A stretch of DNA of 35,988 nucleotides from Myxococcota bacterium (GCA_039208735.1 JBCCQY010000093.1:1-35988), one strand, 5' to 3'. Counted from the stretch's first letter, positions 442-35,762 are shown. Notes: generated by a model from the letters alone, not told the origin. Translations and numbers: made by a program.

Positions 442-1863
442 GTGTTCACGATAAACCTCATTGTCGCTAGTACGTTGACGAGCACTGCGTTTGCGCAGGA
501 CGTAGCGCCGTCGAATCAACCTCAGTCCGCCGAGATCGAGCTGCTGCGACCGGTACTTTCGCCACGTACCGGGGTTGGAATCGACAGTATGGCGCTAGAG
601 AGGCCGGGATCCTTCCGAATTGGTGTTTTCGCAAATTACCTGGCGAATCCGTTGGTTTTGCAGCAGCAAGATGCGGACGACCTGCGGGTAATTGCCAATC
701 GCGCAACCGCCCACCTCGCGTTCGCGGCTGACGTCAGCGACCGTGTGGGAATTCGCGCAAGTCTTCCGTTGGCGCTCAGCTGGGGCTCCGACAACAGCGA
801 TTACACGGCCGATGGATTTGGCTTGGGAGACCTTTCCGCGGGCGTGCGCGGCGTCCTCGTCGAAACCGACAACCTCGCATTTGGTGCGCACGGGGACGTC
901 TTCCTGCCCACAGGTCGATCGGCGTCGTGGTTAGGCGAAGGCGCGGTGCGGATTGGCGCAGGTCTTGGCCTGACCATCGACCCCTCCGATACGTTTTCAA
1001 TCTCCGTCACCGCCGGGGGTCGCACGCGCGACTCCATCCTGACGGGCGCCCAGCTCGAACTGGGACCTGAGGCCTACACCTCGCTGGGTGGGTATCTGGC
1101 CCTTTCCGATGCGGTGTCGCTCAACGCCGGGGTGCTCGGTCGCCTCGCGATTCTCGACGGCACCAATGCGCTCGAAGCGCTCATTGGCGCAGAGATTGCC
1201 CCGAGCGACCTCGTGGCCGTCAACCTTACGGCCGGCCGTGGGCTGACCAGTGGCGTCGGCTCCAGCGACTTTCGGGTGTTGGGTGGCGTGACGTTCCGCC
1301 GTGCCGGCCCCGAGCCAGAGCTGGCGCTCCCGACGGTTCTCGATGACTTCTCGGCCCTGCCCGAAGACTTCACCGATGAGATCGAAGCCCTCGACGCCGA
1401 AAAGGAATGGGACCCAAGCAAGATCGCCCGGGTCAACCGGGGCCAGGTCGAGATTCGTGACCCCATCAAGTTCAAGGTGGGCACAGACCGCGTCTTGGAC
1501 GAGTCGCAGCCCATCCTGGACGCCGTCCACGAGATTCTCGAGACCACGCCCGAAATCATTCACGTCGTGGTTGTGGGCCATGCGTCGAACGAAGGGTCGT
1601 ACGAAGTCAACTACGCCTTGTCGCTCGAGCGCGCGAACGCCGTGTTCGAAGAGCTGCTCCGTCGTGGGGTCCATCCCGACCGTCTTTCGGTCCGGGCGAT
1701 GGGTGAAATCTCCCCGGTCGGCGAAACCAATGACGACGCGGCGTCGCGTCGGGTCGAATTCCGCATCACGCGCGCCCTGAACCAGGGTGAACGCCTTCCC
1801 AACTACAGCAACATCGATCAGCTGCCCTTTAACGGAGAGCAGCGGCCTGGAGGAGCCCAGTGA
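442..1863 (+). CDS. OmpA-family outer-membrane protein with an N-terminal beta-barrel and a C-terminal peptidoglycan-binding domain (TraB-like layout, no TSP3 repeats)
   Basis: ORF 244-1863; likely start is GTG 442 after GGAGAG, giving the signal peptide ...STAFA-Q. Alternating amphipathic strands ('[11 protein letters not shown]', '[21 protein letters not shown]'). C-terminal OmpA motifs 'IKFKVGTD', 'VVGHAS', '[12 protein letters not shown]', 'MGEISP', 'SRRVEF'. Confidence 0.85.
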
Positions 1864-4800
1864 TGCTGTTCATAAGCTGGATTCTCGCAACGACCGGGGT
1901 GGCGCACGCTCAGTGTTCGGCGCCCGAAGAAGCAGACCGCAACTGTAACGGCGTGCCTGAAAGTGCCGAGGGTCTCGTCGATCTGTCGGACCCGCTTTGT
2001 GCGTCGAATGTGGGCCCCTTCGGCGACCGCGACAGTCGAGACTGGTACTACGACTACGGTTCCTATGGCTGCGAAATCTTCCTCGACCCACAGCAGTTCG
2101 ACCCGGACGGCGACGGCAAGGGCTCGGGGCTCATTCTGTTGCCCATCAACAGTCCGAACCCCATCGGCATCTTCTTGCTGGAGTGCGACAACTGCCCGCA
2201 GAACACCTTCCCCAATGCTGACCAGGCCGATGAGGACTGCGACGGGGTTGGCGACGTCTGCGACAACTGCGTCGACACGCCGAACACGAACCAGCTCGAC
2301 CAAGACAACGACGATGTTGGCGATGAGTGCGACCCCTGCGTGTTCGAAGAGGGCGGCGACATCGACGATGACGGCGACGGCATCGGGAATGCCTGCGACA
2401 GCTGCCCGGACCTCCCGAACCCGCTGCAGCAGAACACCGATGGCGACGCTCGCGGCGACGATTGCGACAACTGCCTGACCGTCGTGAACAACCCCATCGA
2501 CACCGATGGCGACAACATCCCCGATACCCAGCCGGATGCGGATGCCGACGGCTTCGGGGATGCTTGCGACGTCTGCCCCGACGACGCCGACCCCGAGCAG
2601 ACCGACAGCGACTTCGACCTCGTGGGCAATGCCTGCGACGTCTGCCCCGGCGAGCGCGACCCCAACCAGTCCGACATGGACAGTGACGGGGTTGGCGATG
2701 AGTGCGACGCCTGCGAAGAGGTCGACGACCCGCTGCAGGAGAACTCCGACGCGGACCGGTTCGGAAACGCCTGCGACAACTGCCCGATGTTCTCGAACGC
2801 CGACCAAGCCGATGAGGACGAAGACGGCGTGGGCGACGCGTGCGACGTCTGCCCGCTCATCCCGAACGCAGCGCAGGCCGACCGTGACGGCGATGGCGAT
2901 GGCGACGAGTGCGACAACTGCCCCGACGTCCCCAACAGCGACCAGAGCGACCTTGATGGCGACGGCGAAGGGGACGCGTGCGACCGGAACCCCGCCCTCC
3001 GCGGTGGCGCATGCAACACCACCGGCCCGGCCGGCCTGTTCGGCCTCGGCGGGCTCCTGATGTTCGGGCTTCTTCGTCGGAGGAGGGTTCCTGTGAGCGG
3101 AACCACCTCCCGCTCGATCGCCGCGGTGCTCCTCGCTCTCGGCCTCGCGGGCTGCGAGGGTGACTTCGTGATTCAGCCCACGGAGACCACCGAGCCCTGC
3201 ACCGGACCCGAGTGTGATCCCGTCACCGTGACCACCCCGTGCATCGAGCTGAAGCCCAACGTCCTCGACTATGGGGAATTCCAGTTTGAAGAGGCGCCGC
3301 CCGAGCTGACCGTCTCCATCGGCAACCCCTGCGCCGGCTCCCTCGAAATCTCCGAGCTGTCGTTCGAGTCCAAGGTCAAGGACCTCCCCGAGGCCTTCGA
3401 GATCGTCAACGCACCGACCCTTCCGCTAGTCGTGAAGGCGTCCGACACCGTCGACCTCGTGATTCGCGCGGCAGCTCCTCGCTTTGGGAACTTCTCGGAC
3501 CGGTTGGTGGTCAGCAGCAACGACCTCAACTTCCCCGAAGACGTGGTCGCCATGTCGGCATCGGCAGTGTGTGAAAGCGCTGCGCTCGACGTTGATGATG
3601 ACGGCGACACCATTCCAAACGGCTGTGACATCTGCCTCGCCGGCGACGACCGCCGCGACAACGACAAAGACGGCGTGCCCGATGCATGCGACCGCTGTGT
3701 CGGCGCAGACGACACCATCGACTTTGATGGTGACACCGTGCCCGACGACTGCGACGCCTGCCCCGATGGCGACGACACCATCGATGACGACACCGACGGC
3801 ATTCCCGACGCTTGCGACTCCTGCCCCGCAGGAAACAACTTCCAGGACGTCGACCAGGACACCGTCCCGGATGCATGCGATCTCTGCGACAACTTCGATG
3901 ACCGCATCGACCTCGACTTCGATGACGTGCCCGGTGACGGCACTGCCGGAAGCTGCGACATCTGCGAAGGCTTCAACGATACCATTGACCTCGACGGCGA
4001 CGGCGTTCCTGGCGATGGCACGCCTCAGTCGTGCGACGTTTGCGAAGGATTCCCCGACGGCATCGATACCGATGGCGACGGAGTGCCTGGCGACAACGGG
4101 GTGACCCCCGGTGGCTGCGATCTGTGCGAAGGTTTCGACGATGCGTTGGACGACGACCTCGACGGCGTCCCGAATGGCTGCGACATCTGCAACCTTGGAC
4201 CCGACAACCTCGACGCCGACAACGACGGTGTGCCTGATGACTGTGACAAGTGCGCGGGCTTCGATGACACGCTCGATGCCGATGGCGACGGCCGCCCCGA
4301 CGGCTGCGATGCCTGCGATCTCGGTGACGACACCCTCGACGCCGACGGCGACAATGTGGCCGACGCGTGCGATCTCTGCCCCAACTTCGATGATGCGATC
4401 GATGCCGACCAAGACACGATTCCCGACGCATGCGACATCTGCCCGAACGGCGATGACCGGGACGACGCCGATGTCGACGGCACACCTGACTTCTGTGACC
4501 TCTGCCCCAACTTCGATGACCTGATCGACGACGACCTCGATGGCGTGCCCGGCGGGCTGGACATCAACAACGTCGTGCTCGCTGGCAGCTGCGATCTCTG
4601 CGAAGGCTTTGACGACCTGCTCGACGACGACCAGGACACGATTCCTGACGCCTGCGACCTCTGCCCAGACTTCGACGACCTCGACGACCAGGATGGCGAC
4701 GGCCTGCCGGACCGCGAAGACTGCGACTCCTGCGTGGGCCTCAACAACGCGATCGATGACGATGGCGACGGTGTGCCCGGCGGTCTCGACATGAATGGCG

Positions 4801-6746
4801 ACATTCTCGAAGGCAGCTGTGACCTCTGCGAGGGTGTCGACGACAGCATCGACGCCGACAGCGACACGATTCCCGACGCTTGTGACGTCTGCCCCGGCTT
4901 CGATGACCTCGCCGACGACGACGTCGACCTCGTTCCGAACGACTGCGACGTCTGCCCCGGCTTCGACGACGCTGAAGACGCCGATGGCGACAGCGTGCCC
5001 GACGGCTGCGATGTCTGCGACAAGGGCGACGATACTCTCGACGCCGACGCCGACACCGTGCCCGACGCGTGCGATCGCTGCGCCGGCTTCGACGACACCA
5101 TCGACGCCGACTTCGACGGCCTGCCCGACCGCGAGCCCGACTGCGACCCCTGCGTAGGCGTGCAGAAGATCGACGCGTTCCCGCAGACGCCGGCCAACCT
5201 CATCGACCTTCTCGTCGTGGTCGACGATTCGTGCTCGATGGGCGACGAACAGGCCGCCCTTGGCTCGAACTTCGATGACTTCATCTTGGCGATGGCTGGC
5301 GTGGGCGCCAATTGGCAGGTCGCCGTCATCAGTACGTCGAGCCCTGACTTCCTCGGCCCGATCATCCTCAACGGCCCCGGTGCGGCCGCGGAGTTCGCAA
5401 GCCAGGTCAACGTGGGCACCGCCGGCAATGCGAACGAACAGGGCATTCAGCGCGCCTACGACTCCACCCAGCCGGGGGGGGACGCGGCCCCCGGAAGCAC
5501 CTTCTTACGGCAGGATGCCGTGCTCTCTGTCGTCATGGTCTCGGACGAGCCTGACTCGAGCACGATCACCCCCCTGCAGGCCTACACCTACTGGCTCGGC
5601 CTCAAGAACAACGACCCCGGCAAGGTGGTTGTAAACGGCATTCTCAACACCAATGCCGCAGGCGGCTACGACCAGCTGATCACACTCGCCTCTGGCCAAA
5701 CGTTCGACATCGTCAACACGACCTGGGGTTCTGACCTTGCGCAGATCGCGACCGGTTCGCTAGCCAGCTTGGCCTTCCCGCTTAACGACATCCCTGTGCC
5801 GGAGAGCATTCTCGTGCGCTCGAACGGGGTGCCGATCGAGGGCTGGATCTATGACCAATCGCAGAACGGCGTGCTCTTCGACGGCTCGAATCGTCCCGCG
5901 TCCGGCACGCTCGTCACCGTCGAATACATCGAGGATTGCGAAGGCGTGATCGATGGTTGTAATGACGGCATCGACCAAGATGGCGACGGCCTCGTCGACT
6001 GGCCGAACGACCCCGGTTGTGAAACCCCGTTCGACCCGAACGAGACCGACCCGCTGACGACGCCGGCGTGCTTCAACAACTCTGACGATGACAGCGACGG
6101 TCTGACGGACTTCCCGAACGACCCCGAGTGCATCTCGGCTGCACACCGCTACGAGAACTGCACCGAACTCGACAGCGACGTGTTTGGCTACCGGATGTGC
6201 GAGCAGGTCGGCGCCACCAACGTCTGTCCCGACCTGTCGGCCAGCAACATCACGCTGGCCCTTGGTGATGAAGGCACCGTTGAAGTCTCACTCGGCTTCT
6301 CGTTTGACTTCTACGGCATCGACTACTCGAGCGTCTTTGTGGGCGCGAACGGCACGCTCAACTTCGAGCTGCCGTTGTCGCCGCCGCAGAACCAGTGCTT
6401 GCCCGCCAACACGCAGGACCGCACCATCATGGCCTGGTGGGACGACCTCAACCCGGCGGGTGGCCAGGTTTGGGCACGGACCTCGGGTGCCGCCCCGAAC
6501 CAGCGGTTCGAGGTGCAGTGGAAGGTGCCACACTTCAATGGCGGCGTTGTCGACGTCCGCGCGGTGCTCCGCGAAGGCTCCAACGACATCGAGATCTGCT
6601 ACGTCGACTCGCTCTCTGGGCTTGGGATCGACAATGGGGCCAGCGCAACGGCCGGTATCCAGGGTAACCAGAGTGTGTTCCTCGAATACAGCTGCTTCGA
6701 CGGCGGCATGATTCAGGGCAACGTGGTGCGCTTCACTCACCCCTGA
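1863..6746 (+). CDS. Giant Asp/Cys-rich surface protein as read in one frame: TSP3-repeat unit with an internal MYXO-CTERM-like tail (1863-~3092) joined to a lipoprotein adhesin unit (3093-6746)
   Basis: Single ORF 1860-6746, with the start overlapping the OmpA stop (GTGATG). Sec signal ...GVAHA-Q; 11 CDxC TSP3 repeats; '[28 protein letters not shown]'; then a second signal with lipobox LAGC. Probably two functional units (see findings). Confidence 0.8.
2185..2985 (+). repeat. Canonical ~23-aa thrombospondin type-3-like coding repeats (P..N.DQ.D.D.DG.GD.CD.C)
   Basis: 11 CDxC units counted in the translation, most with the N..Q signature. Confidence 0.85.
3093..6746 (+). CDS. Probable independent lipoprotein adhesin (~1217 aa): ASH/choice-of-anchor-D Ig-like domain, 23 CDxC Ca-binding repeats, VWA domain, Cys-rich DxDxDG motifs, NIDO-like C-terminal domain
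   Basis: AGGAGG at 3081-3086, GTG at 3093, lipobox Cys at codon 21 (3153-3155). MIDAS-type '[11 protein letters not shown]'; '[21 protein letters not shown]'; '[21 protein letters not shown]...[10 protein letters not shown]'. Colinear with the paralog at 6939-10517. Confidence 0.7.
3590..5155 (+). repeat. 21-aa TSP3-variant coding repeats (..DD..D.D.D.VPD.CD.C), 23 units
   Basis: Counted in the translation; several units carry insertions ([20 protein letters not shown]). Confidence 0.85.
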
Positions 6747-6769: not shown

Positions 6770-6805
6770 AAAGCCCCGGTTTCGGTTTTCCGAAGCCGGG
6801 GCTTT
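6770..6805. terminator. Rho-independent terminator-like hairpin, possibly bidirectional
   Basis: AAAGCCCCGGTTTCGG-TTTT-CCGAAGCCGGGGCTTT: 16-bp stem with one G-U pair, just downstream of the stop at 6746. Confidence 0.8.
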
Positions 6806-6938: not shown

Positions 6939-9900
6939 ATGGTCACACGCCACAGATTGGCCCAATTTGGGACGTCAATCCTCGTACTCAGCTTGATGGG
7001 GTGCTCGGGTGACTCCGATCCGAATACGGATGCTACGCTCCCCGTTCCCGTCCCCGATGAGATTCCGTGCATCCAGCTTTCCCCTCAGCTCCTTGATTTT
7101 GGAGAAATTCGGTTTGGCGCAACCGGGGGGCGGGAGACCTTCGAAGTTCGCAACAATTGTGAAGGGGAACTCATCGTCACCGCGATGAGCTTCGAGGGCG
7201 GCGACACGTTCACGCTTGAGGATGTCGCTTTGCCCTTCTCGGTCTTCGCGGGTCGAAGCGAGATCGTGAGTGTTCGCACTCAGCCCCAAGGATACGGCGC
7301 GTTCTCGGATCAGCTCATCGTCCAAAGCAACGATCCAAACTTTCCTTCTGACTCCCTGACCCTCGTGGTCGATTCGGTGTGCACCAGCACGAGCTTCGAC
7401 ATCGATACCGACGGAGACGGCATCCCCGACGGCTGCGACGCCTGTGCGGAGGGGGACGACAGCGCCGATGCCGACCTCGATTCTGTGCCCGACGCCTGCG
7501 ATGCGTGCGAGGGGTTTGACGACGCTCTCGACAAGGACCTCGACACGGTTCCCGACGCCTGCGATGTGTGTCCGTTTGGAAACGACACCTTCGACGGCGA
7601 TGGTGACACCGTTCCCGATGCCTGCGACATCTGCCCGTTCGGAAGCGACCTCGAAGATGGCGATGGTGACACCGTTCCCGACGCTTGCGACGTCTGTGAG
7701 CTTGGGGATGATGCGGTCGATGACGACGCCGACACCGTACCCAACGCTTGCGACATCTGTGCAGGCGCCGACGACCGCATCGATGATGACCTCGACACCC
7801 GACCCAACGGGTGCGACGTCTGCCCCGGATTCGACGACCTTGACGACCTCGATAGCGACGGCAATCCGGACGGTTGCGACATTTGCCAGGGGTTCGACGA
7901 CAACATCGACACCGATGGCGACGGGGTGCCGGGGGATGGCCTGTCACCCAACAGCTGTGATGTTTGCGAGGGCTTCCTCGACAGCGCGGATGCGGATGGC
8001 GATTCGTTCCCCGATGGCTGCGATCGGTGTCCGTTGGGGAGCGACCTGTTCGATACCGACGGGGATTTCGTGCCGGATGCCTGTGACATCTGTGAAGGCT
8101 TCGACGACCAGATCGACGGCGATGGGGATGGACGACCGGACGGCTGCGACTCGTGCTTGCTCGGCGATGACAGCCTCGACGCCGATTCCGACGACGTCGC
8201 CGATGCTTGCGACATTTGCCAAGGGTTCGACGACCGCGTCGACAACGACTTCGATGGGTTCCCCGACGGGTGCGACCTCTGCCCTGGGTTTGACGACAGC
8301 GTCGATCTCGATGGCGACACCGTTCCCAACGGCTGCGATGTTTGCCCGGGCGAAGACGACCGGCTCGACGACGACAACGATGGCGTCCCCGACGGATGTG
8401 ACCGTTGTCCGAATGCCAACGACAACGCCGATGCCGACGCCGATACCGTCCCGGATGCCTGTGACCTCTGCCCCTTCGCGGACGACCTACAAGACCGAGA
8501 CAGCGACTCGATCCCGGATGCGTGCGACGCCTGCGACGGCTTCAATGATGCCATTGACCTAGATGGAGACGGCATTCCCGGAGATGGGACGGAGGGCAGC
8601 TGCGACATCTGCGAAGGATTCGCCGACCGCGATGACGCCGATGTTGACGGCATCCCCGACGGCTGCGATGCCTGCCGTGGCTTCGACGATCTCATTGACG
8701 AAGACCAGGATGGGGTGCCGAACGGGTGTGACATCTGCACGGGCTTCGACGACCTTCCCGACGCGGACGGCGACCTGATTCCCGACGGGTGTGACCAATG
8801 CGCCGCGGGAGACGACCTGCTCGATGCCGATGCCGACACCATCGCGGATGCCTGCGATGCCTGTCCGGGTTTCGACGACCGCGTCGACATCGATCTCGAC
8901 GGGGCGCCTGACGCTTGCGACACCTGCCTGGGCGCGCCCCAAACCGACAACTTGGCTCCCGCAAGTGCTCCAAAGCTTGACTTGCTCTTCGTGATCGACG
9001 ACAGCTGCAGCATGCTCGACGACCAGAACACCCTGGCCAATGCCTTTAGCGGGCTCACCAACGGCTTTGGTGTGGTGGGTGCCGACTGGCAGATTGGTGT
9101 GATCACGACGAGTTCCGCCACGCTTCAAGGCCCCATCATCGTCCCTGGACCCAGTGCATCAAGCGACTTCACGACCCAGGTCACCGCGGGCACAAATGGA
9201 CTGGCTGTCGAGGCCGGCATCGATCGAGCTTGGGAAGCGACCCAGCCGCTGGGCGACGCGGGTCCGGGCAGCCCATTCCTCCGCTCCGACGCTGCGCTCG
9301 TCATCCTGTTCTTCAGCGACGATCAGGACTCCAGCATGGCCATCACGCCTCAACAGGCCCTGACCTACTGGCAGGGCCTCAAGGGAGCGCCCGAACAGCT
9401 TGCGATCCATGGCTTTTTGAATCCGTTCGCGACCGCCGGGTACGACGTCGTGATCGACCAGGGTCGGATCTTCGACATCTTCGACCAGGCGTCGTTCGTG
9501 ACGAATCTCGAGGCGGCGGTGCTGGCTTCCACCCCGCCAACCACTCGCACGCTGTCAGCCTTGCCGGTGGTCGAGACGCTCGACGTCAAGCTCGACGGCG
9601 TCTCGAGTTCGGCGTGGCGCTACGACAGCTGCGCAAACCGCATCGAGGTTTCAGGTGGCGCCTTGGGCACCACCACCACGATCACGGTGGACTACGTCGA
9701 AGACTGCGGCAGTTCCATCGGAGCGTGTTCCGATGGCCTCGACAACGACGGCGACGGGCGAACCGACTTCCCCAACGAACCAGGGTGTTCCTCGGCGTGC
9801 GACAACAACGAGACCGATCCCGCCGTGCTCCCTCGGTGCGCGGATGGCCTCGACTCCGACGCAGACGGACAAACCGACTTTCCCGCCGACCCCGAGTGTG

Positions 9901-10517
9901 CCTCGGCTGCCGATCGGTCCGAGTCTTGCAGCGTGATCGACATCGACGACTTCGGCTACCAAATGTGCGAAGAACTCCTGCCGGTCGGCATCTGCCCTGA
10001 CCTCTCCGCCTCGCTGGTCGACCTGGGACTCGGCGACGAAGGCACCGCCTCGGTCCCACTCGGTTTCGACTTTGACTTCTACGGGGATACCTACACAAGC
10101 GTCTGGGTCGGCGCCAATGGCACACTGTCGTTTGGCAACGCGCTGTCGCCAGCAAGCAACCAGTGCCTACCCGATGACCGCTTCGACGCGGCCATCATGG
10201 CCTGGTGGGACGACCTCAATCCCGCCGGGGGAAGCGTGTGGACGCGCACGTCGGGAGCGGGCACGACGCGGCGGTTTGAAGTCCAATGGAAGGTCCCCCA
10301 CGTCAACGGTACCAGCACGCTCGACGTTCGCGCCGTGCTCCACGAAGCCACGGGCGATATCGACCTGTGCTACGTCGATTCGATCGGCGGCCTCGGCATC
10401 GACAATGGCACGAGTGCCACCTCGGGGATTCAGAGAGACTTCCGAGGCTTCCACGAATTCAGTTGTGGGAGCCCAGACCTGACGACCGGCAACGTGGTGC
10501 GGTTCCTGCACCCCTGA
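6939..10517 (+). CDS. Paralogous lipoprotein adhesin (~1192 aa): Ig/ASH - 24 CDxC repeats - VWA - Cys-rich - NIDO-like
   Basis: ORF 6765-10517; likely start ATG 6939 (MVTRHRLAQFGTSILVLSLMGC, lipobox). 'LLFVIDDSCSM' MIDAS motif; C-terminus 'GNVVRFLHP' versus 'GNVVRFTHP' in the paralog. Confidence 0.85.
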   Translation: MVTRHRLAQFGTSILVLSLMGCSGDSDPNTDATLPVPVPDEIPCIQLSPQLLDFGEIRFGATGGRETFEVRNNCEGELIVTAMSFEGGDTFTLEDVALPFSVFAGRSEIVSVRTQPQGYGAFSDQLIVQSNDPNFPSDSLTLVVDSVCTSTSFDIDTDGDGIPDGCDACAEGDDSADADLDSVPDACDACEGFDDALDKDLDTVPDACDVCPFGNDTFDGDGDTVPDACDICPFGSDLEDGDGDTVPDACDVCELGDDAVDDDADTVPNACDICAGADDRIDDDLDTRPNGCDVCPGFDDLDDLDSDGNPDGCDICQGFDDNIDTDGDGVPGDGLSPNSCDVCEGFLDSADADGDSFPDGCDRCPLGSDLFDTDGDFVPDACDICEGFDDQIDGDGDGRPDGCDSCLLGDDSLDADSDDVADACDICQGFDDRVDNDFDGFPDGCDLCPGFDDSVDLDGDTVPNGCDVCPGEDDRLDDDNDGVPDGCDRCPNANDNADADADTVPDACDLCPFADDLQDRDSDSIPDACDACDGFNDAIDLDGDGIPGDGTEGSCDICEGFADRDDADVDGIPDGCDACRGFDDLIDEDQDGVPNGCDICTGFDDLPDADGDLIPDGCDQCAAGDDLLDADADTIADACDACPGFDDRVDIDLDGAPDACDTCLGAPQTDNLAPASAPKLDLLFVIDDSCSMLDDQNTLANAFSGLTNGFGVVGADWQIGVITTSSATLQGPIIVPGPSASSDFTTQVTAGTNGLAVEAGIDRAWEATQPLGDAGPGSPFLRSDAALVILFFSDDQDSSMAITPQQALTYWQGLKGAPEQLAIHGFLNPFATAGYDVVIDQGRIFDIFDQASFVTNLEAAVLASTPPTTRTLSALPVVETLDVKLDGVSSSAWRYDSCANRIEVSGGALGTTTTITVDYVEDCGSSIGACSDGLDNDGDGRTDFPNEPGCSSACDNNETDPAVLPRCADGLDSDADGQTDFPADPECASAADRSESCSVIDIDDFGYQMCEELLPVGICPDLSASLVDLGLGDEGTASVPLGFDFDFYGDTYTSVWVGANGTLSFGNALSPASNQCLPDDRFDAAIMAWWDDLNPAGGSVWTRTSGAGTTRRFEVQWKVPHVNGTSTLDVRAVLHEATGDIDLCYVDSIGGLGIDNGTSATSGIQRDFRGFHEFSCGSPDLTTGNVVRFLHP
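7400..8930 (+). repeat. 21-aa TSP3-variant coding repeats, 24 units
   Basis: 24 CDxC units counted in the translation. Confidence 0.85.
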
Positions 10518-21807: not shown

Positions 21808-22584
21808 TCAGTTGATGCCGGTCGGCTGGTCAAAGCCCCCGAGGACTTCGAACGCATCGACGTCGCCGCCATCGATGCGCTGGGCCGTCACGCTAAACTC
21901 GCGGGTGCAATCATCGTTCACCCGAAGGGTACACAGATCTCCGTTGTCATCCGGACAATCGTTGTTGAACTCCTGATTGAACACGAAGTTGCCGCCGTAG
22001 CCTCCGGGCGGTTCGACCCAGTCGAGGTAGGTGTCGGTCTCCAACATCTGTGTGGCGGTCGTGCCTACGACATCCGGATCCCACTCGTCGTTTTCCGCCA
22101 GCTCCAAGAGGAACTGGTCTCGACGCGTGAAGCTCCCCGAAAAGTTGGGGTCTTCTTCGCCAACCGGGCGAAGCACAATCGTCTGTTCAATGGCCTGTTC
22201 GAACAACCGGGTGTGGACGTAGGTCTCGGCCTCGCGCGTCTCGTCAAACCGCTCGTTGTTAACGGACGAAACCTCGATACCACCGTTGTCGGTCTCGGTG
22301 CCGGTGAGCACATCGCCACGGTAGTTCATGAGGACGGTGCCGTCCTCGCCTTTCGTGACGAACGCATAGTCGGCGCCCAGGGTCTGTTCTTCCGTGATCA
22401 TCCGCTCGAACGCATTGGCACTGCCCGCGGGCCGCGTGTTCGCCATGTTGCTCGAGATCTCGACATCTGGACAGATCGTCGCGGTTTCGATGACTTCAAG
22501 CCAGAACACGTCACCACTAAACGGCGCCGGCGCCGGCTCACAGCCGATCGCGAGCAACGCCGCGGGGATCAGGTAGCGGTTCAT
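21808..22584 (-). CDS. Acidic lipoprotein of unknown function, tandem copy 1
   Basis: ATG 22584 after GGAGG; MNRYLIPAALLAIGC lipobox; colinear with 22814-23587. Confidence 0.8.
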   Translation of the reverse strand: MNRYLIPAALLAIGCEPAPAPFSGDVFWLEVIETATICPDVEISSNMANTRPAGSANAFERMITEEQTLGADYAFVTKGEDGTVLMNYRGDVLTGTETDNGGIEVSSVNNERFDETREAETYVHTRLFEQAIEQTIVLRPVGEEDPNFSGSFTRRDQFLLELAENDEWDPDVVGTTATQMLETDTYLDWVEPPGGYGGNFVFNQEFNNDCPDDNGDLCTLRVNDDCTREFSVTAQRIDGGDVDAFEVLGGFDQPTGIN

Positions 22585-22724
22585 TACGCCTCCATCGGTG
22601 CCTGCCGCACCACACCGGCCATTTTCCGCCGGAGCAGTGGCCAACCCGAGGCGCTTCCCGCCATACCCGGTGCGAACCGGCACCCAAACCTGGAGGATGC
22701 GGCTGCGAACTGGACCCTCCCCCA

Positions 22725-22779
22725 CGTCAGGAAAGTGTGGATTCCGGGGAGGGCCGTCCAACGATCACAAATCGTGACG
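22725..22779 (-). promoter_or_regulatory. Conserved upstream element, copy 1
   Basis: + strand CGTCAGGAAAGTGTGGATTCC-N16-CGATCACAAATCGTGACG; repeated at 23729-23783. Confidence 0.65.
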
Positions 22780-22813
22780 GACAGATTGCGCTTTCGTGAA
22801 GAAGGCGCGTCCG

Positions 22814-23587
22814 CTACGGAACCCCTTCGTCCTGGTTGAAGTCGACCAGCGCTTCGAAGGTATCTACGTCCGCACCCTCAATGCGAATCGCGGTGACCGC
22901 AAACTCCCGCGTACAATCGCTGTTCACGCGCAAGCTGCACAGATCGCCGTTGCCATCAGGACAGTCGTCGAAGAACTCCTGGTTGATGACGTTGTCCTGC
23001 TGCGGACTCGGCTGAACCTCCCAGACCAACCAATCATCGGTCTCGGGCATCTGTGTGGCGCCCGTTCCCACCACATCCGCGTCCCATTCGTCGTTTTCAG
23101 CAACTTCGAGCAGGAACAGATCGCGCCGGCTGTAGCTTCCCGAGAACGACTGGCTGTCCTCGCCCCCTGCGGGACGCAAGATCAGCGTTTCCTCGACCGC
23201 CTGTTCTTCGACCCGCGTGTGAATGTACGTGTCGCCTTCGCGCGTCTCGTCGAGGCGCTCGGACTGAGCCCAAGACACCTCGATGGCGCCATTGTTCTCG
23301 GTTCCGCGAAGTACCGCATCCCGGTAGTTCACGAGGATGGTGCCATCCTCCGTCTTCGTCACATAGGCATAGTCCCCACCCAAGGTGGCTTCCTGCGTGA
23401 TCGTGCGATCGAATGTGCCATCCACTCCAATCGGATTCGCATTGGTGATGGATGTCGAGATCTCCACGTCAGGACAGATCGTGTCGGTACTGACCAGGTC
23501 AATCCAGAACACGTCGCTGCTGAAGGGTTCGGGTGCCGGTTCACAGCCAATCACCATCAGGGCGAGCGGAATCAGGGTCCGGTTCAT
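22814..23587 (-). CDS. Acidic lipoprotein of unknown function, tandem copy 2
   Basis: MNRTLIPLALMVIGC lipobox; shared blocks 'TICPDVEIS', 'AENDEWD.DVVGT.ATQM.ETD', 'CPD.NGDLC.LRVN.DCTREF'. Confidence 0.85.
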   Translation of the reverse strand: MNRTLIPLALMVIGCEPAPEPFSSDVFWIDLVSTDTICPDVEISTSITNANPIGVDGTFDRTITQEATLGGDYAYVTKTEDGTILVNYRDAVLRGTENNGAIEVSWAQSERLDETREGDTYIHTRVEEQAVEETLILRPAGGEDSQSFSGSYSRRDLFLLEVAENDEWDADVVGTGATQMPETDDWLVWEVQPSPQQDNVINQEFFDDCPDGNGDLCSLRVNSDCTREFAVTAIRIEGADVDTFEALVDFNQDEGVP

Positions 23588-30651: not shown

Positions 30652-31250
30652 CCTCCCGGCGCATCGTCATTGGAGTGACCGGCGCGTCTGGGCAACCCTA
30701 TGCCCAGCGCATCCTCGACTTCTTAGCGGCCCATCACGAGGACCTCGACATGGAGGTTCGGGTGGTGTTCACCAAGTTCGGTCGCTTGGTTTGGGGCGAT
30801 GAGATCGGAACCGACCCCAAAGAGGTCTACCCGTTCGAGATTCACACGCCGAGCGACATGCTGGCCCCCTTCGCTTCTGGCTCTGCGAACTTTGATGCGA
30901 TGGCCATCGTGCCGTGCTCCGCGGGCACCTTGGCCCGGATCGCGACGGGTGTGTCGACCGATCTCGTGGGTCGGGCGGCGGACGTGATTTTGAAGGAGCG
31001 ACGCAAGCTCGTCATTGTGCTCCGTGAATCCCCCTACAACCTCGTACACCTACGAAACATGGTTGCGGTGACAGAAGCGGGCGCAGTGGTCATGCCGGCA
31101 TCCCCGAGCTTTTACTCGGCGCCCAAAGACCTCAACGCGCTGCTCGACACCGTGACCGCTCGGATCCTCGATCAATTGGGGATCGACAACCAACTCATGC
31201 ACCGGTGGACCGGCGAGCTACGCGGCGCCACCGCTCGGAGGACCTCATGA
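30648..31250 (+). CDS. ubiX: Flavin prenyltransferase UbiX (MqnM-like)
   Basis: GTG 30648 overlaps the upstream stop; 'IGVTGASG', 'ASGS', 'PCS.GTL', 'RAADV.LKERR', 'RESP', 'P.FY'. Confidence 0.93.
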   Translation: MTSRRIVIGVTGASGQPYAQRILDFLAAHHEDLDMEVRVVFTKFGRLVWGDEIGTDPKEVYPFEIHTPSDMLAPFASGSANFDAMAIVPCSAGTLARIATGVSTDLVGRAADVILKERRKLVIVLRESPYNLVHLRNMVAVTEAGAVVMPASPSFYSAPKDLNALLDTVTARILDQLGIDNQLMHRWTGELRGATARRTS

Positions 31251-32362
31251 TCGCCTCCCCCGTTTTGCAGCGGAGTCTCGACCGCGCAGACCTGGGCTCG
31301 ATCGCCGAGAAGGTCATCGCTGGCACCCGGCTCTCGTTCAAGGAGGGGCTGCAGCTCCTCAACAGCCCGCATGTGGCCGCTGTGGGCGCCCTCGCCAACC
31401 TGGTTCGCGAAGCGCGTCACGGCGATTTGACCTGGTTCAACCGGAACCAACACATCAACGCCACCAACGTCTGCGAAGCCAGTTGCATCTTTTGCAGCTT
31501 TGCCCGGCTGAAGACAGGCGATCCACAGGCCTACACGATGTCGATCGAACAAGCCGTCGATCGCGTGCGTGCCTTGCGGCATCAGTTTGTGACCGAGGTT
31601 CACATCGTGAACGGTCTCAATCCTGACCTGCCGTTCACGTACTACACCGATTTGCTGACCGCGTTGAAGACCGAACGGCCCGACCTCCACATCAAAGGGT
31701 TCACGGCGGTCGAGATCCACTACTACGCTGGCAAGTACGGCATGACCTACCGCGAAGTGATCGAGGCTTTGCGGGCGGCGGGCCTGGATTCCATGCCCGG
31801 TGGTGGGGCGGAGATCTTCCATCCCCGGGCGAGGAAGAAACTCTGCAACGACAAAGTAGACGCCGACGGGTGGCTCGAGGTGCATCGCACCGCTCACGGT
31901 TTGGGCATGCGAACGAACTGCACCATGTTGTTTGGCAGCATCGAGAAGCCCGAAGAGCGCATCGATCACATGATTCGACTGCGTGAACTCCAAGACGAGA
32001 CTGGCGGATTCCAGACGTTCATCCCGCTGAAGTTCCACAACGAGAACAATCGGCTCCAGAAGATCAGTGAGCCGTCGGATGCGGACTGCCTCAAGACCCT
32101 GGCCGTCTCCCGCTTGATGCTCGACAACATTCCCCACATCAAGGCGTATTGGCCCATGCTCGGGGTGCAGCTGGCCCAGCTTTCGTTGTCATTCGGGGTC
32201 GACGACCTCGACGGGACGGTGCGGGAAGAGCGCATCTACCACATGGCGGGGGCGAAAACCCCGCAGGAACTGACGCGCCCCGAGCTCGTCGCCCTCATTC
32301 GTCGCGCCAATCGCATCCCCGTCGAACGCGACACCCTCTACCACGTCGTCGCGGAGGCTTGA
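31247..32362 (+). CDS. mqnE: Aminofutalosine synthase MqnE (radical SAM)
   Basis: ATG 31247 (ATGA overlap); 'TNVCEASCIFCSF'; 'EVHIV.GL.PDLP', 'HIK.FTAVEI', 'SMPGGGAEIF', 'HIKAYW.MLG', 'DDLDGTV.EERI'. Confidence 0.88.
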   Translation: MIASPVLQRSLDRADLGSIAEKVIAGTRLSFKEGLQLLNSPHVAAVGALANLVREARHGDLTWFNRNQHINATNVCEASCIFCSFARLKTGDPQAYTMSIEQAVDRVRALRHQFVTEVHIVNGLNPDLPFTYYTDLLTALKTERPDLHIKGFTAVEIHYYAGKYGMTYREVIEALRAAGLDSMPGGGAEIFHPRARKKLCNDKVDADGWLEVHRTAHGLGMRTNCTMLFGSIEKPEERIDHMIRLRELQDETGGFQTFIPLKFHNENNRLQKISEPSDADCLKTLAVSRLMLDNIPHIKAYWPMLGVQLAQLSLSFGVDDLDGTVREERIYHMAGAKTPQELTRPELVALIRRANRIPVERDTLYHVVAEA

Positions 32363-32364
32363 TC

Positions 32365-33768
32365 ATGGCTCGCATCGGAACCGTCGGGTATCTCAACGCG
32401 CGCCCATTGAGCGACCGCATCGACATTGACCGGCACACGCTGGTCTTGGCGCACCCCGCCGAGATTGCCCGCCAGCTCCGGGAGCGCGAGGTCGACGTCG
32501 CGCTCGTTCCCGTCGCCGCGGCATTGTCGGATGGCGACTACCAAATGGTCGGAGGCGTAGGCATCGGCGCTGAAGGGCCGGTCGCATCGGTGCTTCTGGT
32601 GGCCGAGCAGCCTCCCGAGACGTGGACCGAGGTCCTGCTGGACGGGGTGAGCCGCACTTCGGTGGTGCTCGCCCAGCTCCTGTTGGACGGTCCGCTAAAG
32701 CGCCGGGCGAAGGGCGAACTCACGATTCGCCATGTGGGTCCCAATGAAGGGGTGGCCCAAGCGGAAGGCAGCGTGGCCGCCCTGGTGATTGGCGATGCGG
32801 CTCGGGAACTCCCCGACCGACTCACTCATCGCATTGACCTCGCTGAGGCCTGGTTCGAATGGACGGGCCTGCCATTTGTCTTCGCAGTGTGGGCGGGCCA
32901 GCCCGACTTGGACCCCGCGGTGGTGACGCACCTACAGGAAGCCGGACGTGCCGGCATTGCAGCCGTGCCCCACTCCTATGCCGGGGCCGACCTCGAATAC
33001 CTGACGCGCAACATTCGCCACACCCTCGACGACAAAGCCCTCATGGGGCTCCGTCGCTTCGCCGCGCTGGCGAGTGCGAAGGGCCTCGTCGCACGCCACG
33101 ACATTCCCCTGTATGGGCCCGCCGAACGCACGTTGCCCCGAACCCAACTGGATGACCTGCTCAGCAAGGCGGCGGACGGAACCCGTCTCACCGCCGAGGA
33201 ACTGGGGCTGCTCGATGAACATGCCGCGCTGGCTGACCTCGCCTTGGTCGCCACCCTGATCAAAGAAGCGCGTCACCCTTCCCCGAAGGTGCCCTACCGC
33301 GTAGACGTCGGCGTCGTCGCGGCCGATGGCGAAACGTTGGAGCAGATCGTTGTCGGCACCGAAGCATCGGTGGTGGACCAGCTCGTTCGTCTTCGCGAGG
33401 AGCAAGACAACGGCGGACGCATTTGGGGGGTCCAGGTGTGGGCGGCCGGTGGCAATGCCCGTGGCGCCTACGGCTCGCTCGCCAACACGGCGGCCGACCA
33501 TCAGCGCGCCACCGCACTCGCTCGCATCGCGCTTGACAATGTCGACCACATGGTCGCCTCGCCTGCCACCGAAGGGTTGGGCATGGCCCAGATGAGCCTC
33601 CACCTGGGTTGCGATCACTTGGGACGTTTCCGCGTCAGCGATGAGGACGAAGCCCGTCGGACCTCCGATGAGGCCGATCGCCACATTCGCGAAGCCGGCT
33701 TCGAGCCTGACGGTTCGATTCGTCAGGGAGTCCTCGAAGCCTCCGACAGCTCCGTCTCGCCAACATGA
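32365..33768 (+). CDS. mqnA: Chorismate dehydratase MqnA fused to a degenerate MqnC/CofH-like C-terminal domain
   Basis: ATG 32365; MqnA motifs 'VGYLNARPL', 'GPVASVLL', 'SRTSV.L', 'LVIGDAA', 'DLAEAW..WTGLPFVFAVW'. A ~200-aa extension resembles the termini of MqnC. Confidence 0.85.
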   Translation: MARIGTVGYLNARPLSDRIDIDRHTLVLAHPAEIARQLREREVDVALVPVAAALSDGDYQMVGGVGIGAEGPVASVLLVAEQPPETWTEVLLDGVSRTSVVLAQLLLDGPLKRRAKGELTIRHVGPNEGVAQAEGSVAALVIGDAARELPDRLTHRIDLAEAWFEWTGLPFVFAVWAGQPDLDPAVVTHLQEAGRAGIAAVPHSYAGADLEYLTRNIRHTLDDKALMGLRRFAALASAKGLVARHDIPLYGPAERTLPRTQLDDLLSKAADGTRLTAEELGLLDEHAALADLALVATLIKEARHPSPKVPYRVDVGVVAADGETLEQIVVGTEASVVDQLVRLREEQDNGGRIWGVQVWAAGGNARGAYGSLANTAADHQRATALARIALDNVDHMVASPATEGLGMAQMSLHLGCDHLGRFRVSDEDEARRTSDEADRHIREAGFEPDGSIRQGVLEASDSSVSPT

Positions 33769-34643
33769 GAGCCACCATGGCCGACCGACCGCTCGATAGC
33801 CTGCGCACCTACAGCTCGATGATCAAGCTGTCGCACAGCATCTTCGCCATGCCGTTTGCGCTTGCCGCGGCCGTTCTGGCCGCGCGCACCGTCGAGGTCA
33901 CCGTCGCTCAGATTGGGCTCATCCTCGTGTGCTTGGTCACCGCGCGGTCGGCGGCCATGGGCTTCAATCGCATCCTCGATCGAGACATCGACGCCGATAA
34001 CCCCCGTACGTCCAGTCGAGAGCTGCCCTCGGGAGCCATCAGCCTGCGCGCCGCGACCGTCTTCACCGCGGTGTCGGCGGGCCTGTTCGTGCTCGCCACC
34101 GCCCTGCTTGGACCGTTGACCCTGGCCTTGTCGCCCATCGTGCTCTTGGTGGTCCTCGGGTACTCTTACACGAAACGCTACACGGCCTGGTGTCACGCGG
34201 TCCTCGGACTGGCCCTGGCATTGGCCCCCACCGGGGTCTGGGTCGCCCTCACCGGCTCCTACGCGTGGACGCCCCTGCTCTTGTCGCTTGCGGTGGGAAC
34301 CTGGGTGGCAGGCTTCGACATCCTGTACTCCTGCCAGGACTATGAATTCGACCGCGATCGCGGCCTACACTCGGTTCCCGTCGCACTCGGACTATCGGGC
34401 GCGATGGTGCTTTCGGCGGTACTCCACCTTGGAACCGTGGGGCTGCTCGTGGCCGTAGGGGTCGTGGCGAACCTTGGCTTCGCCTACGCGATCGGCGTAG
34501 CGGTGATCACGGCGGTACTCGTTTACGAGCACTGGATCGTGCGTCCCGACGACCTGTCACGGATCGACAAGGCATTCTTCGACCTCAACGGATACGTCTC
34601 GCTCCTGTTCTTTGCCTTCGTGGTGGGCGACCTCGCCTGGTGA
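33765..34643 (+). CDS. mqnP: UbiA-family prenyltransferase of the futalosine pathway (MqnP-like)
   Basis: 'IKLSHSIFAMPFA', 'ARSAAMGFNRILDRDID..NPRT..RELP', 'YSYTKR', 'GFDILY.CQD..FD', 'AFF..NG'. Confidence 0.88.
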   Translation: MRATMADRPLDSLRTYSSMIKLSHSIFAMPFALAAAVLAARTVEVTVAQIGLILVCLVTARSAAMGFNRILDRDIDADNPRTSSRELPSGAISLRAATVFTAVSAGLFVLATALLGPLTLALSPIVLLVVLGYSYTKRYTAWCHAVLGLALALAPTGVWVALTGSYAWTPLLLSLAVGTWVAGFDILYSCQDYEFDRDRGLHSVPVALGLSGAMVLSAVLHLGTVGLLVAVGVVANLGFAYAIGVAVITAVLVYEHWIVRPDDLSRIDKAFFDLNGYVSLLFFAFVVGDLAW

Positions 34644-34703: not shown

Positions 34704-35762
34704 GTGACGACGATGTGGTGGATGGCCAGCGCGCTCGCAGCACCGGGATTCTTCGACGGGCCAGGGTCCGCCGACCTTCCCGAGGATTCGCTCGGCGATG
34801 AGTTTGGGATCCGATTGCCGGACATGGACGACGAACCGCCCACCGTGGCTGCGCCGATCGTCAACGGAGAAGTCGACACCACCGGGCGCTTCCCGTCCAC
34901 CAGCTACCTCCTGCTCGAAAGCACGTCGGGCGGGCTCGGCACGTGTTCGGGCACCCTGATCCACCCCGAGTACATCCTCACTGCAGCCCATTGCGTGGTG
35001 TTCGACGATGGTTCGACGTTGACGCGCGCGGACATTGGGTTCGGCGTGGGTGGCGGCAACGGGTTCAGCACCACCCGGGACGGCATCTACTACTGGGTTC
35101 ACCCCGACTACAACGACATTGGTAACAGCCCCGACCTCGCCATCATCCAGATGGACCTCCCCATCAACAGCCTCGAGTCCATCGCACTCAACGACGAGCC
35201 CCTGGGTGACGGGTGGATCGGGGTAGAGCTGGAGTTGGTCGGATACGGAGTCACGAGCGATGACGCGGACGGCACCGGGGGCATCCGTCGCTTCGCCGAT
35301 GCCGAGATTTTCGCGATTAACAGCCTAGTTCTGCGAACCACCGACGAGACCCAGAACGTCTGTTTCGGCGACTCGGGCGGTCCGATGTATCGAGACACCC
35401 CCGCGGGTCTCGAGTTGGTCGGCGTCAACTCGTTCGTGACCGGCGGGTGCGTCGATGGCAACGCGGGTGCCGCACGAGTCGATCGAGACCTGCAGTGGAT
35501 CACCGACATCGTGCCGGACGTTCGCCTGTCCGCCGCCGAGCCCCCCCTCGTGGTCGACAAGCCGCCCCAGGTTCGGCCGCTCGACATGCAAGTTGGACCC
35601 AACGCCGCACCGCCCAACGTCGAAGCCCCAGAGTGGGACGACGCGACGCTGCCTTCCGGCTCGCTCTATCGTCAATTCGGGTGCAGCACGCAGGGAGCGC
35701 CATGGTCGGCGGTCGGCTGGCTCGTCGTCGCGGCCGCCTTGGGTTGGCGCCGCCGCCGCTAA
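34704..35762 (+). CDS. S1 (trypsin-fold) serine protease with a MYXO-CTERM-like sorting tail
   Basis: 'IVNG' mature N-terminus, 'CSGTLI', 'LTAAHC', 'DLAII', 'CFGDSGGP'; tail 'GCSTQGAPWSAVGWLVVAAALGWRRRR'. Confidence 0.92.
   Translation: MTTMWWMASALAAPGFFDGPGSADLPEDSLGDEFGIRLPDMDDEPPTVAAPIVNGEVDTTGRFPSTSYLLLESTSGGLGTCSGTLIHPEYILTAAHCVVFDDGSTLTRADIGFGVGGGNGFSTTRDGIYYWVHPDYNDIGNSPDLAIIQMDLPINSLESIALNDEPLGDGWIGVELELVGYGVTSDDADGTGGIRRFADAEIFAINSLVLRTTDETQNVCFGDSGGPMYRDTPAGLELVGVNSFVTGGCVDGNAGAARVDRDLQWITDIVPDVRLSAAEPPLVVDKPPQVRPLDMQVGPNAAPPNVEAPEWDDATLPSGSLYRQFGCSTQGAPWSAVGWLVVAAALGWRRRR

Follow-up and report, generated by a model that had tools for sequence, protein, structure and literature searches.

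A predicted polyprotein with a MYXO-CTERM tail fused to an internal lipoprotein signal in a marine myxobacterium

By definition, a C-terminal sorting tag is terminal, and in lipoprotein maturation Lgt lipidates the cysteine of the lipobox while LspA cuts before it. Bacterial polyproteins that are split by membrane proteases are, to our knowledge, thought to be rare; one of them is FbcH of Bradyrhizobium japonicum, the cytochrome b–c1 precursor, which is split at an internal signal peptide. [quoted passage not shown] The same passages describe internal MYXO-CTERM motifs as rare in ORFs and give one case, MXAN_5598, a possible gene fusion of which the N-terminal part would be processed; where they deal with MXAN_5598, they mention neither a second signal peptide nor an export route for the C-terminal part (PMC11980579).

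The gene described here lies in a window of 35,988 nucleotides (the whole stretch of DNA that was analysed) from an uncultured marine myxobacterium, of which the 9.4-Mb genome assembly (G000) is 92.7% complete and consists of 288 contigs; the sequencing run that matches best is a marine metagenome. With the Myxococcus xanthus TraA/MrtX system, as far as the available parts of the source describe it, it has in common the tripartite tail (Cys, helix, Arg cluster), an N-terminal signal, and a myxosortase core and a T2SS secretin in the genome. In contrast to TraA, 1219 residues follow the tail, which is thus not located at the C-terminus, and they start with a second, lipoprotein signal. An internal tail between two protein units is shared with MXAN_5598, known to us by its description in PMC11980579; that protein is described there as a rare and atypical single case, whereas here the second unit is a predicted lipoprotein and the layout occurs six times in one genome. 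In MtsC (NF047638, cell–cell cohesion), too, a MYXO-CTERM tail goes together with repeats of thrombospondin type 3, but there is no fusion to a lipoprotein. FbcH gives rise to respiratory subunits through one signal peptidase I cut and has no sorting tag, lipid anchors or repeated design. In bunyavirus glycoproteins and IGSF1, according to the parts of those accounts that were available, an internal signal that comes after a stop-transfer helix likewise gives rise to two exported proteins, but this involves the ER signal peptidase of eukaryotic cells and no sortase-type tag. We found no tag-plus-signal polyprotein among the papers listed in the literature searched (MYXO-CTERM, sortase, PEP-CTERM and internal signal peptides, with subscription journals outside the coverage), and the accessible part of bioRxiv 10.1101/2023.06.07.544157 contains no mention of 'polyprotein', 'internal' or 'fusion'.

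Layout of the locus and its junction

All features of the locus are on the plus strand. The long ORF (1860..6746, 1628 aa), a predicted polyprotein precursor, is preceded by a gene for an OmpA-domain, TraB-like outer-membrane protein (442..1863; PF00691, 1e-14; NF033763 TraB at 78 bits, short of the 700 required), to which it is coupled through a GGAGG-6 nt-GTGA overlap. Its N-terminal signal peptide (1863..1910; hydrophobic residues 1–16 ending in AHA, assigned by rule and by eye) has a predicted signal peptidase I site between AHA and Q. Unit 1 (1911..3011) is an MtsC-like thrombospondin type 3 repeat protein with 23-aa repeats, which matches PF02412 with 47 bits and NF047638 MtsC with 156.4 bits, below the cut-off of 350. 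Relatives encode homologs of unit 1 that carry an ordinary terminal tail.

The internal MYXO-CTERM tail (3003..3086) consists of the motif GGAC, a linker, a hydrophobic helix and RRRR, with Gly381 at 3003, Cys384 at 3012–3014 and Arg405–Arg408 at 3075–3086. TIGR03382 matches residues 384–408 with 17.4 bits in the whole protein and 20.4 bits in unit 1 alone (scores range from 17.4 to 24.7 bits, against a cut-off of 15.85), and TIGR03901 is absent from the profile matches listed for the fused protein. The four Arg codons are CGT CGG AGG AGG and are followed by GTT CCT and by GTG at 3093. The stretch 3079..3096 thus combines a Shine–Dalgarno sequence GGAGGAGG inside the Arg codons, a 6-nt spacer, the in-frame GTG and a TGA in the +1 frame at 3094–3096. 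A predicted cytoplasmic loop of ten residues and a predicted second signal peptide occupy 3087..3155; its h-region and lipobox (LAGC) span residues 419–431, ending in Cys431 (3153–3155). The signal is internal within the long frame, and would be N-terminal only if GTG 3093 were the start. Ranked by hydrophobicity over 13 residues, the three leading stretches of the protein fall on the second signal (residue 419), which is the highest, on the tail helix (residue 392) and on the N-terminal signal, which ranks third. Cys384 is the predicted site of lipidation and of myxosortase cleavage, and Cys431 the predicted site of Lgt and LspA.

Unit 2 (3153..6746) is a predicted lipoprotein. Its 21-aa Cys/Asp repeats are accompanied by one domain that is Ig-like (choice-of-anchor D-like), one that is vWA/MIDAS-like and, at the C-terminus, one that is beta-rich. 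The repeat type switches at the junction, as the initial annotation had noticed: the most frequent CDxC spacing is 23 residues before it (seven of ten) and 21 residues after it (15 times). The same annotation had seen a MYXO-CTERM-like tail within the 1628-aa ORF, a GTG two codons past it that begins an LAGC lipoprotein signal, an AGG AGG that doubles as a Shine–Dalgarno sequence and a second unit colinear with the gene at 6939, and all of these hold. The latter gene (6939..10517), a stand-alone paralog, carries a lipoprotein signal itself (LMGC) and is 54% identical to unit 2 over 1171 aligned residues. The second signal of the fused protein aligns with the N-terminal signals of the stand-alone paralogs. 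No convincing terminator is present between the units (four found versus 2.9 in shuffles).

Family matches of unit 2 to NF012200 and NF052240 are weak and under the cut-offs. For the MIDAS family adhesin profile NF052240 the score is 27.7 bits against a cut-off of 700 and concerns one short stretch, where a DxSxS string is presumably a MIDAS-type motif. A single-sequence fold of the C-terminal 522 residues gave no confident structure (pLDDT 33), and this region has no match in the PDB or in Pfam.

The long frame in contigs and in relatives

The evidence for the frame comes from assembled contigs. In the likely source run a single contig runs across 2700–3700 with zero differences. Gap-free contigs of other strains, about 96% alike to the window, come from two further studies (contig depths 2.3 and 2.8): X3 (study P3) covers 3000–3303 with 13 other letters and X2 (study P2) covers 2830–3115 with nine, although X2 reaches just 28 letters past 3087, under our 31-letter bridging rule. 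The differences listed all lie outside 3075–3108. Contigs X4, X5 and X7 do not reach across the junction.

In the congener G001 the same fusion is present as a single open frame of 1698 aa, with different junction DNA. This ortholog is 65% identical over 1594 aligned residues and keeps the same tail (76% identical to that of the window), Arg cluster and lipoprotein signal; at four-fold sites the two genes agree in 52% of cases, versus 45% expected at saturation. In G054, which belongs to another genus, the tail, RRRR, signal and unit 2 lie in one frame behind the same OmpA-domain gene (58% identity), which is also found upstream in G001. The G054 copy has two frame changes, one at residues 382/383, just before the tail cysteine, and one at residue 1372, and its lipobox is irregular (ESGC); this points to assembly errors or to a gene that is broken, and the copy weighs less. 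Cys384 and Cys431 are both invariant across the three orthologs.

The initial annotation had asked whether relatives carry two ordinary GTGA-coupled genes instead. G001 and G054 are fused, and no split ortholog was found among 182 genomes of the class, a scan in which the three full-length matches are the members of the alignment itself and from which a few weak matches that begin near the tail in G033:C278, G050:C5, G082:C62 and G133:C324 are excluded. The genome scan gave only the G001 and G054 loci, and metagenome scans gave no further orthologs. In G002, G003 and G004 (80–95% complete) the junction region was unmatched with the queries used, which does not imply absence. The fusion is real and conserved.

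It is plausible that two GTGA-coupled genes became fused long ago. The simplest reading is that they fused before G000 and G001 split and that the start was kept or has not yet decayed, but the compact junction of G054 could equally well be the ancestral state. Another stand-alone copy of unit 2, on contig C5 of G000, is 77% identical over 1220 residues and has its own ribosome-binding site and signal, so unit 2 is viable as a whole protein. In trees of seven unit 2 copies this copy groups with unit 2 of the window for the vWA domain (88/94, midpoint root), while the tree of the Ig domain leaves its placement unresolved; the trees are too weak to order fusion versus fission.

Polyprotein processing and its alternatives

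We consider it probable that the gene encodes a polyprotein precursor in which the tail, the Arg cluster and the second signal form a membrane hairpin, and that this precursor is cut by myxosortase and by the Lgt/LspA pathway. The N-terminal signal would direct unit 1 through Sec and would then be removed. The MYXO-CTERM helix would halt transfer, with RRRR and the ten-residue loop staying in the cytoplasm, and the next hydrophobic helix, with the Arg cluster serving as its positive n-region, would re-start export, so that a hairpin is formed and unit 2 reaches the periplasm. Cys384 would be lipidated and myxosortase would cut after it, leaving unit 1 anchored at its C-terminus; Lgt would lipidate Cys431 and LspA would cut before it, leaving unit 2 anchored at its N-terminus. 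The hairpin peptide would be discarded. The predicted products, of about 370 and about 1200 aa, are an MtsC-like thrombospondin-repeat protein and a vWA-tipped repeat lipoprotein, respectively. They are probably adhesins made in a 1:1 ratio, the adhesive role being suggested by sub-threshold family matches only. The genome encodes one myxosortase, two LspA and four Lgt over cut-off, and one GspD. The myxosortase matches NF040914 with 121 bits (cut-off 100) and clears the cut-off of Mrt_core, but falls below those of MrtX, MrtC and MrtP. Among the explanations that the initial annotation had offered, a polyprotein that a sorting protease and signal peptidase II would cut apart is the best supported, with the cleavage itself predicted.

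The strongest competitor, which we nevertheless regard as unlikely, is that initiation at GTG 3093 dominates and that the read-through part is a tolerated by-product, degraded after myxosortase frees unit 1. The Shine–Dalgarno sequence before this GTG pairs with −11.9 kcal/mol, which is more than chance, since among 4154 internal ATG and GTG codons in frame 0.2% attain this value. With its 6-nt spacing it has the same geometry as two other starts, the coupled one upstream (−9.3) and that of the stand-alone paralog (−10.3). G001 retains GGAGG and GTG (−11.3) and additionally has a second ATG at −8.3. The AGG at Arg407 is kept in both species, whereas outside the junction none of the four Arg codons that are CGT or CGA is shared, although the numbers are small. 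On the other hand, the spacing between the Shine–Dalgarno sequence and the GTG in G001 is 12 nt, and G054 has no AGG, no start codon between RRRR and the h-region, and reaches just −6.6, at a GTG further on. Over a protein divergence of 35% the long frame has remained open. Among the junctions collected below, 19 of 34 lack a nearby start, and starts just upstream of the Arg run are not commoner in internal (10/34) than in terminal tails (43/98; p = 0.16). The Shine–Dalgarno sequence and GTG most likely mark where a formerly separate gene began, a start that is vestigial or still active, and internal initiation may add extra unit 2 to that derived from the precursor.

A precursor that is only partly cut is more doubtful still: one of the enzymes would fail on its internal site, and one unit would remain tethered by the hairpin to the inner membrane, or both would remain joined. 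Internal lipoboxes are not a textbook substrate of Lgt and LspA, which counts in favour of partial cutting. The MrtX tests in the available passages likewise concern terminal tails, followed by at most small C-terminal tags, but work cited there has sorting tags functioning in mid-protein (PMC11980579). Against partial cutting we also count the invariance of Cys384 and Cys431 in the three orthologs, and second units that are TraB-like beta-barrels, as in locus L084, need release in order to reach the outer membrane.

The initial annotation had further proposed that a programmed +1 frameshift at AGG AGG stops unit 1 at TGA 3094–3096, while the Shine–Dalgarno sequence restarts unit 2. The second half of this proposal may hold, because a strong Shine–Dalgarno sequence and an in-frame GTG are kept in both congeners, but the recoding itself is not supported because the tandem AGG is private to one species, and we rate it as very improbable. 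Tandem AGG in E. coli is known to cause slippage. AGG is rare here (3.6% of Arg codons), the 92.7% complete genome yielded no gene for tRNA-Arg(CCU), and the +1 stop sits at the GTG in the window and in G001 alike. However, G001 reads AGG CGA and G054 reads CGG CGC CGC CGC without any AGG, so that with the tandem in one of three orthologs the shift site is not conserved, while the conserved product stays in frame 0 throughout. Tandem AGG occurs in one of 34 internal junctions and one of 98 terminal tails, and AGG is used equally in internal (5/140 codons) and terminal Arg clusters (13/369). The pair AGG AGG is found 57 times in 3459 long ORFs. Among the 34 junctions none but that of the window shows a tandem AGG or, within six codons, a +1 stop; a second +1 stop would come from G001, which is outside this set. 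The genome does contain tRNA-Arg(UCU). The TGA that gives the GTGA overlap is present as annotated, but as a signal it is no more than chance, A following 17.5% of 63,717 GTG codons. Folding of the RNA of 3060–3160 does not surpass that of shuffled versions (z 0.11), giving no frameshift-stimulating structure, and a shifted ending would bring little gain when myxosortase takes off the tail regardless. A literature search on AGG AGG frameshifting, with subscription journals outside its coverage, returned nothing relevant. The best reading is that AGG AGG is incidental to translation elongation.

Least credible of all is the other pair of proposals, in which the GGG run contains an assembly error or has recently gained 1 nt, joining two ordinary genes: with one base fewer the tail would indeed be normal and stop at the TGA overlapping the GTG, but both are rejected because the strain contigs are gap-free and G001 and G054 are fused in frame despite a different junction sequence, and the distance to the congener, with its near-saturated four-fold sites, speaks against 'recent' in particular.

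Tail–signal junctions in other genes

Searches with the tail alone are unbiased as to what comes after it. In G000 TIGR03382 has 34 matches over its cut-off, of which three are internal, and in G001 two of the best 30 are internal; all five internal tails lead into a hydrophobic stretch with either an AxA site or a lipobox at its end. With our own terminal-tail profile and a pattern search, six junctions were found in G000 (on contigs C20, C36, C54, C93, C105 and C125), three of the lipoprotein type and three of the signal peptidase I type. Of the internal matches to the regular expression in G000, five of 11 have no signal, and none of these five is matched by TIGR03382 or reaches 10 bits with our own tail profile.

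A junction profile was then used for two surveys; it contains the signal half, which inflates the signal rates in both by selection. Over 121 genomes of the order, 150 of 1236 matches were listed, and 40 regions were fetched on their basis. In 27 of these, from 23 other genomes, there are 28 more junctions; the remaining 13 regions have no tail match at the threshold used. Among 1.84 billion representatives the profile matches 183 proteins. In the 150 of these that were listed, an internal Cys-type tail is present in 107, and at least 13 have two or more internal tails. By our own rule a signal follows 120 of 122 internal tails in the listed representatives, versus 522 of 4499 random positions (12%), the former rate being subject to the selection mentioned above. 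The position of the h-region is not selected for by the profile, and in 111 of 121 cases at most three residues separate its start from the Arg cluster; a Met lies within the spacer in three of the listed representatives.

At the DNA level 34 junctions were compared (G000:C117 was dropped as spurious from 35, and the G001 ortholog and C20, C54 and C105 of G000 are below the threshold). In 19 of them there is no in-frame ATG, GTG or TTG from five codons before to six codons after the Arg cluster. Because there is no start codon near the signal, the second unit of these 19 genes likely comes from a precursor, and the Arg cluster likely doubles as the n-region of the second signal. The junction of the window is atypical in its ten-residue spacer and its strong Shine–Dalgarno sequence and GTG.

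These surveys incline us towards a general polyprotein design in bacteria with C-terminal sorting, although we hold it less firmly than the polyprotein reading of the present gene. Tag helix, Arg cluster and signal helix would make up a disposable hairpin, in which the Arg cluster would act both as stop-transfer element and as n-region of the signal, and one gene would give rise to two to eight or more envelope proteins, with the second units taking lipoprotein, surface-tag or beta-barrel routes. The present gene would be a dual-mode example that keeps an internal start. If the polyprotein reading is true, myxosortase and Lgt/LspA act on internal sites, two lipid-anchored surface proteins are made from one gene, and annotation as one protein misses about one in ten tagged genes in these genomes (three of 34, and two of the best 30). 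For the layout of the tag, MXAN_5598 is the one internal MYXO-CTERM precedent in print, and the activity of MrtX on MYXO-CTERM in E. coli offers a direct test of the reading, as far as both are described in the available passages (PMC11980579).

PEP-CTERM tags show the same layout of tail and signal (P0005, P0023 and P0038), with at least seven internal PEP-CTERM junctions listed for P0005, and P0109 has four internal MYXO-CTERM junctions. Locus L084, from the same order as the window, has an adhesin–tail–barrel/OmpA layout in which the second unit is a TraB-like beta-barrel, and it shares this layout with MXAN_5598 as the latter is described in the available part of PMC11980579. At the C54 junction of G000 the upstream unit appears to be short or degenerate.

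Junctions in PEP-CTERM and MYXO-type polyproteins

The layout in which a sorting tag and its arginine cluster run in frame into a second signal peptide is repeated in PEP-CTERM (exosortase) proteins, as seen in three protein representatives from the junction-profile search (P0005, P0023 and P0038). P0005, which is 2500 residues long, contains nine TIGR02595 stretches and at least seven internal junctions in addition to a terminal tag. Multi-unit polyproteins are also found among proteins of the MYXO type. Representative P0109 has four internal junctions within 4697 residues, while the protein encoded at L109 in the relative genome G014 (contig C31) exceeds 4200 residues and carries two internal tails and one terminal tail.

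Junctions leading into barrel and OmpA-type proteins

The regions L084, L085, L093, L094, L097, L107, L108 and L117 form a recurring junction family, in which the second units start with a similar 'DAQRF'-like motif. In L084, the one member checked, the second unit is a TraB-like barrel/OmpA protein, and its layout agrees with that published for Myxococcus xanthus MXAN_5598 (PMC11980579). In the host genome, an internal tail and signal followed by an OmpA-type protein are present at L043:4933-7269 (G000:C54). Only a short stretch, in which no signal is obvious, precedes this tail; this upstream part is possibly a remnant.

Relatives of the fused ORF

The host genome also contains a stand-alone lipoprotein gene (L046:5538-9257, G000:C5) with 77% identity to unit 2 of the fused ORF. 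Unit 2 is closer to this gene than to the fused ortholog of the congener G001, which suggests, from sequence comparison, that the stand-alone gene may have arisen when a copy of unit 2 separated from the fused ORF, or that exchange took place between both. The ortholog in another genus (L045, G054:C7) has two frame changes, one of them directly before the tail cysteine within a GC repeat, and these may represent either error or decay.

Other features of the window

Directly 3' of the fused-ORF stop, a long GC-rich inverted repeat (6771-6805) looks terminator-like by eye; it is absent from the candidates of the terminator scan. Two tandem paralogous lipoprotein-like genes (21808-23587, minus strand), for which the Pfam comparison returned zero matches, adjoin an aspartyl-protease-domain gene. 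The genes at 31205-34643 are of the radical SAM (CofH/MqnC-type), menaquinone-biosynthesis and UbiA kinds, and we take them to be likely the futalosine pathway; in the middle one, a PF02621 domain is fused to a C-terminal region that resembles a degenerate CofH/MqnC. A trypsin-family protease at 34704-35762 carries an ordinary terminal MYXO-CTERM tail.
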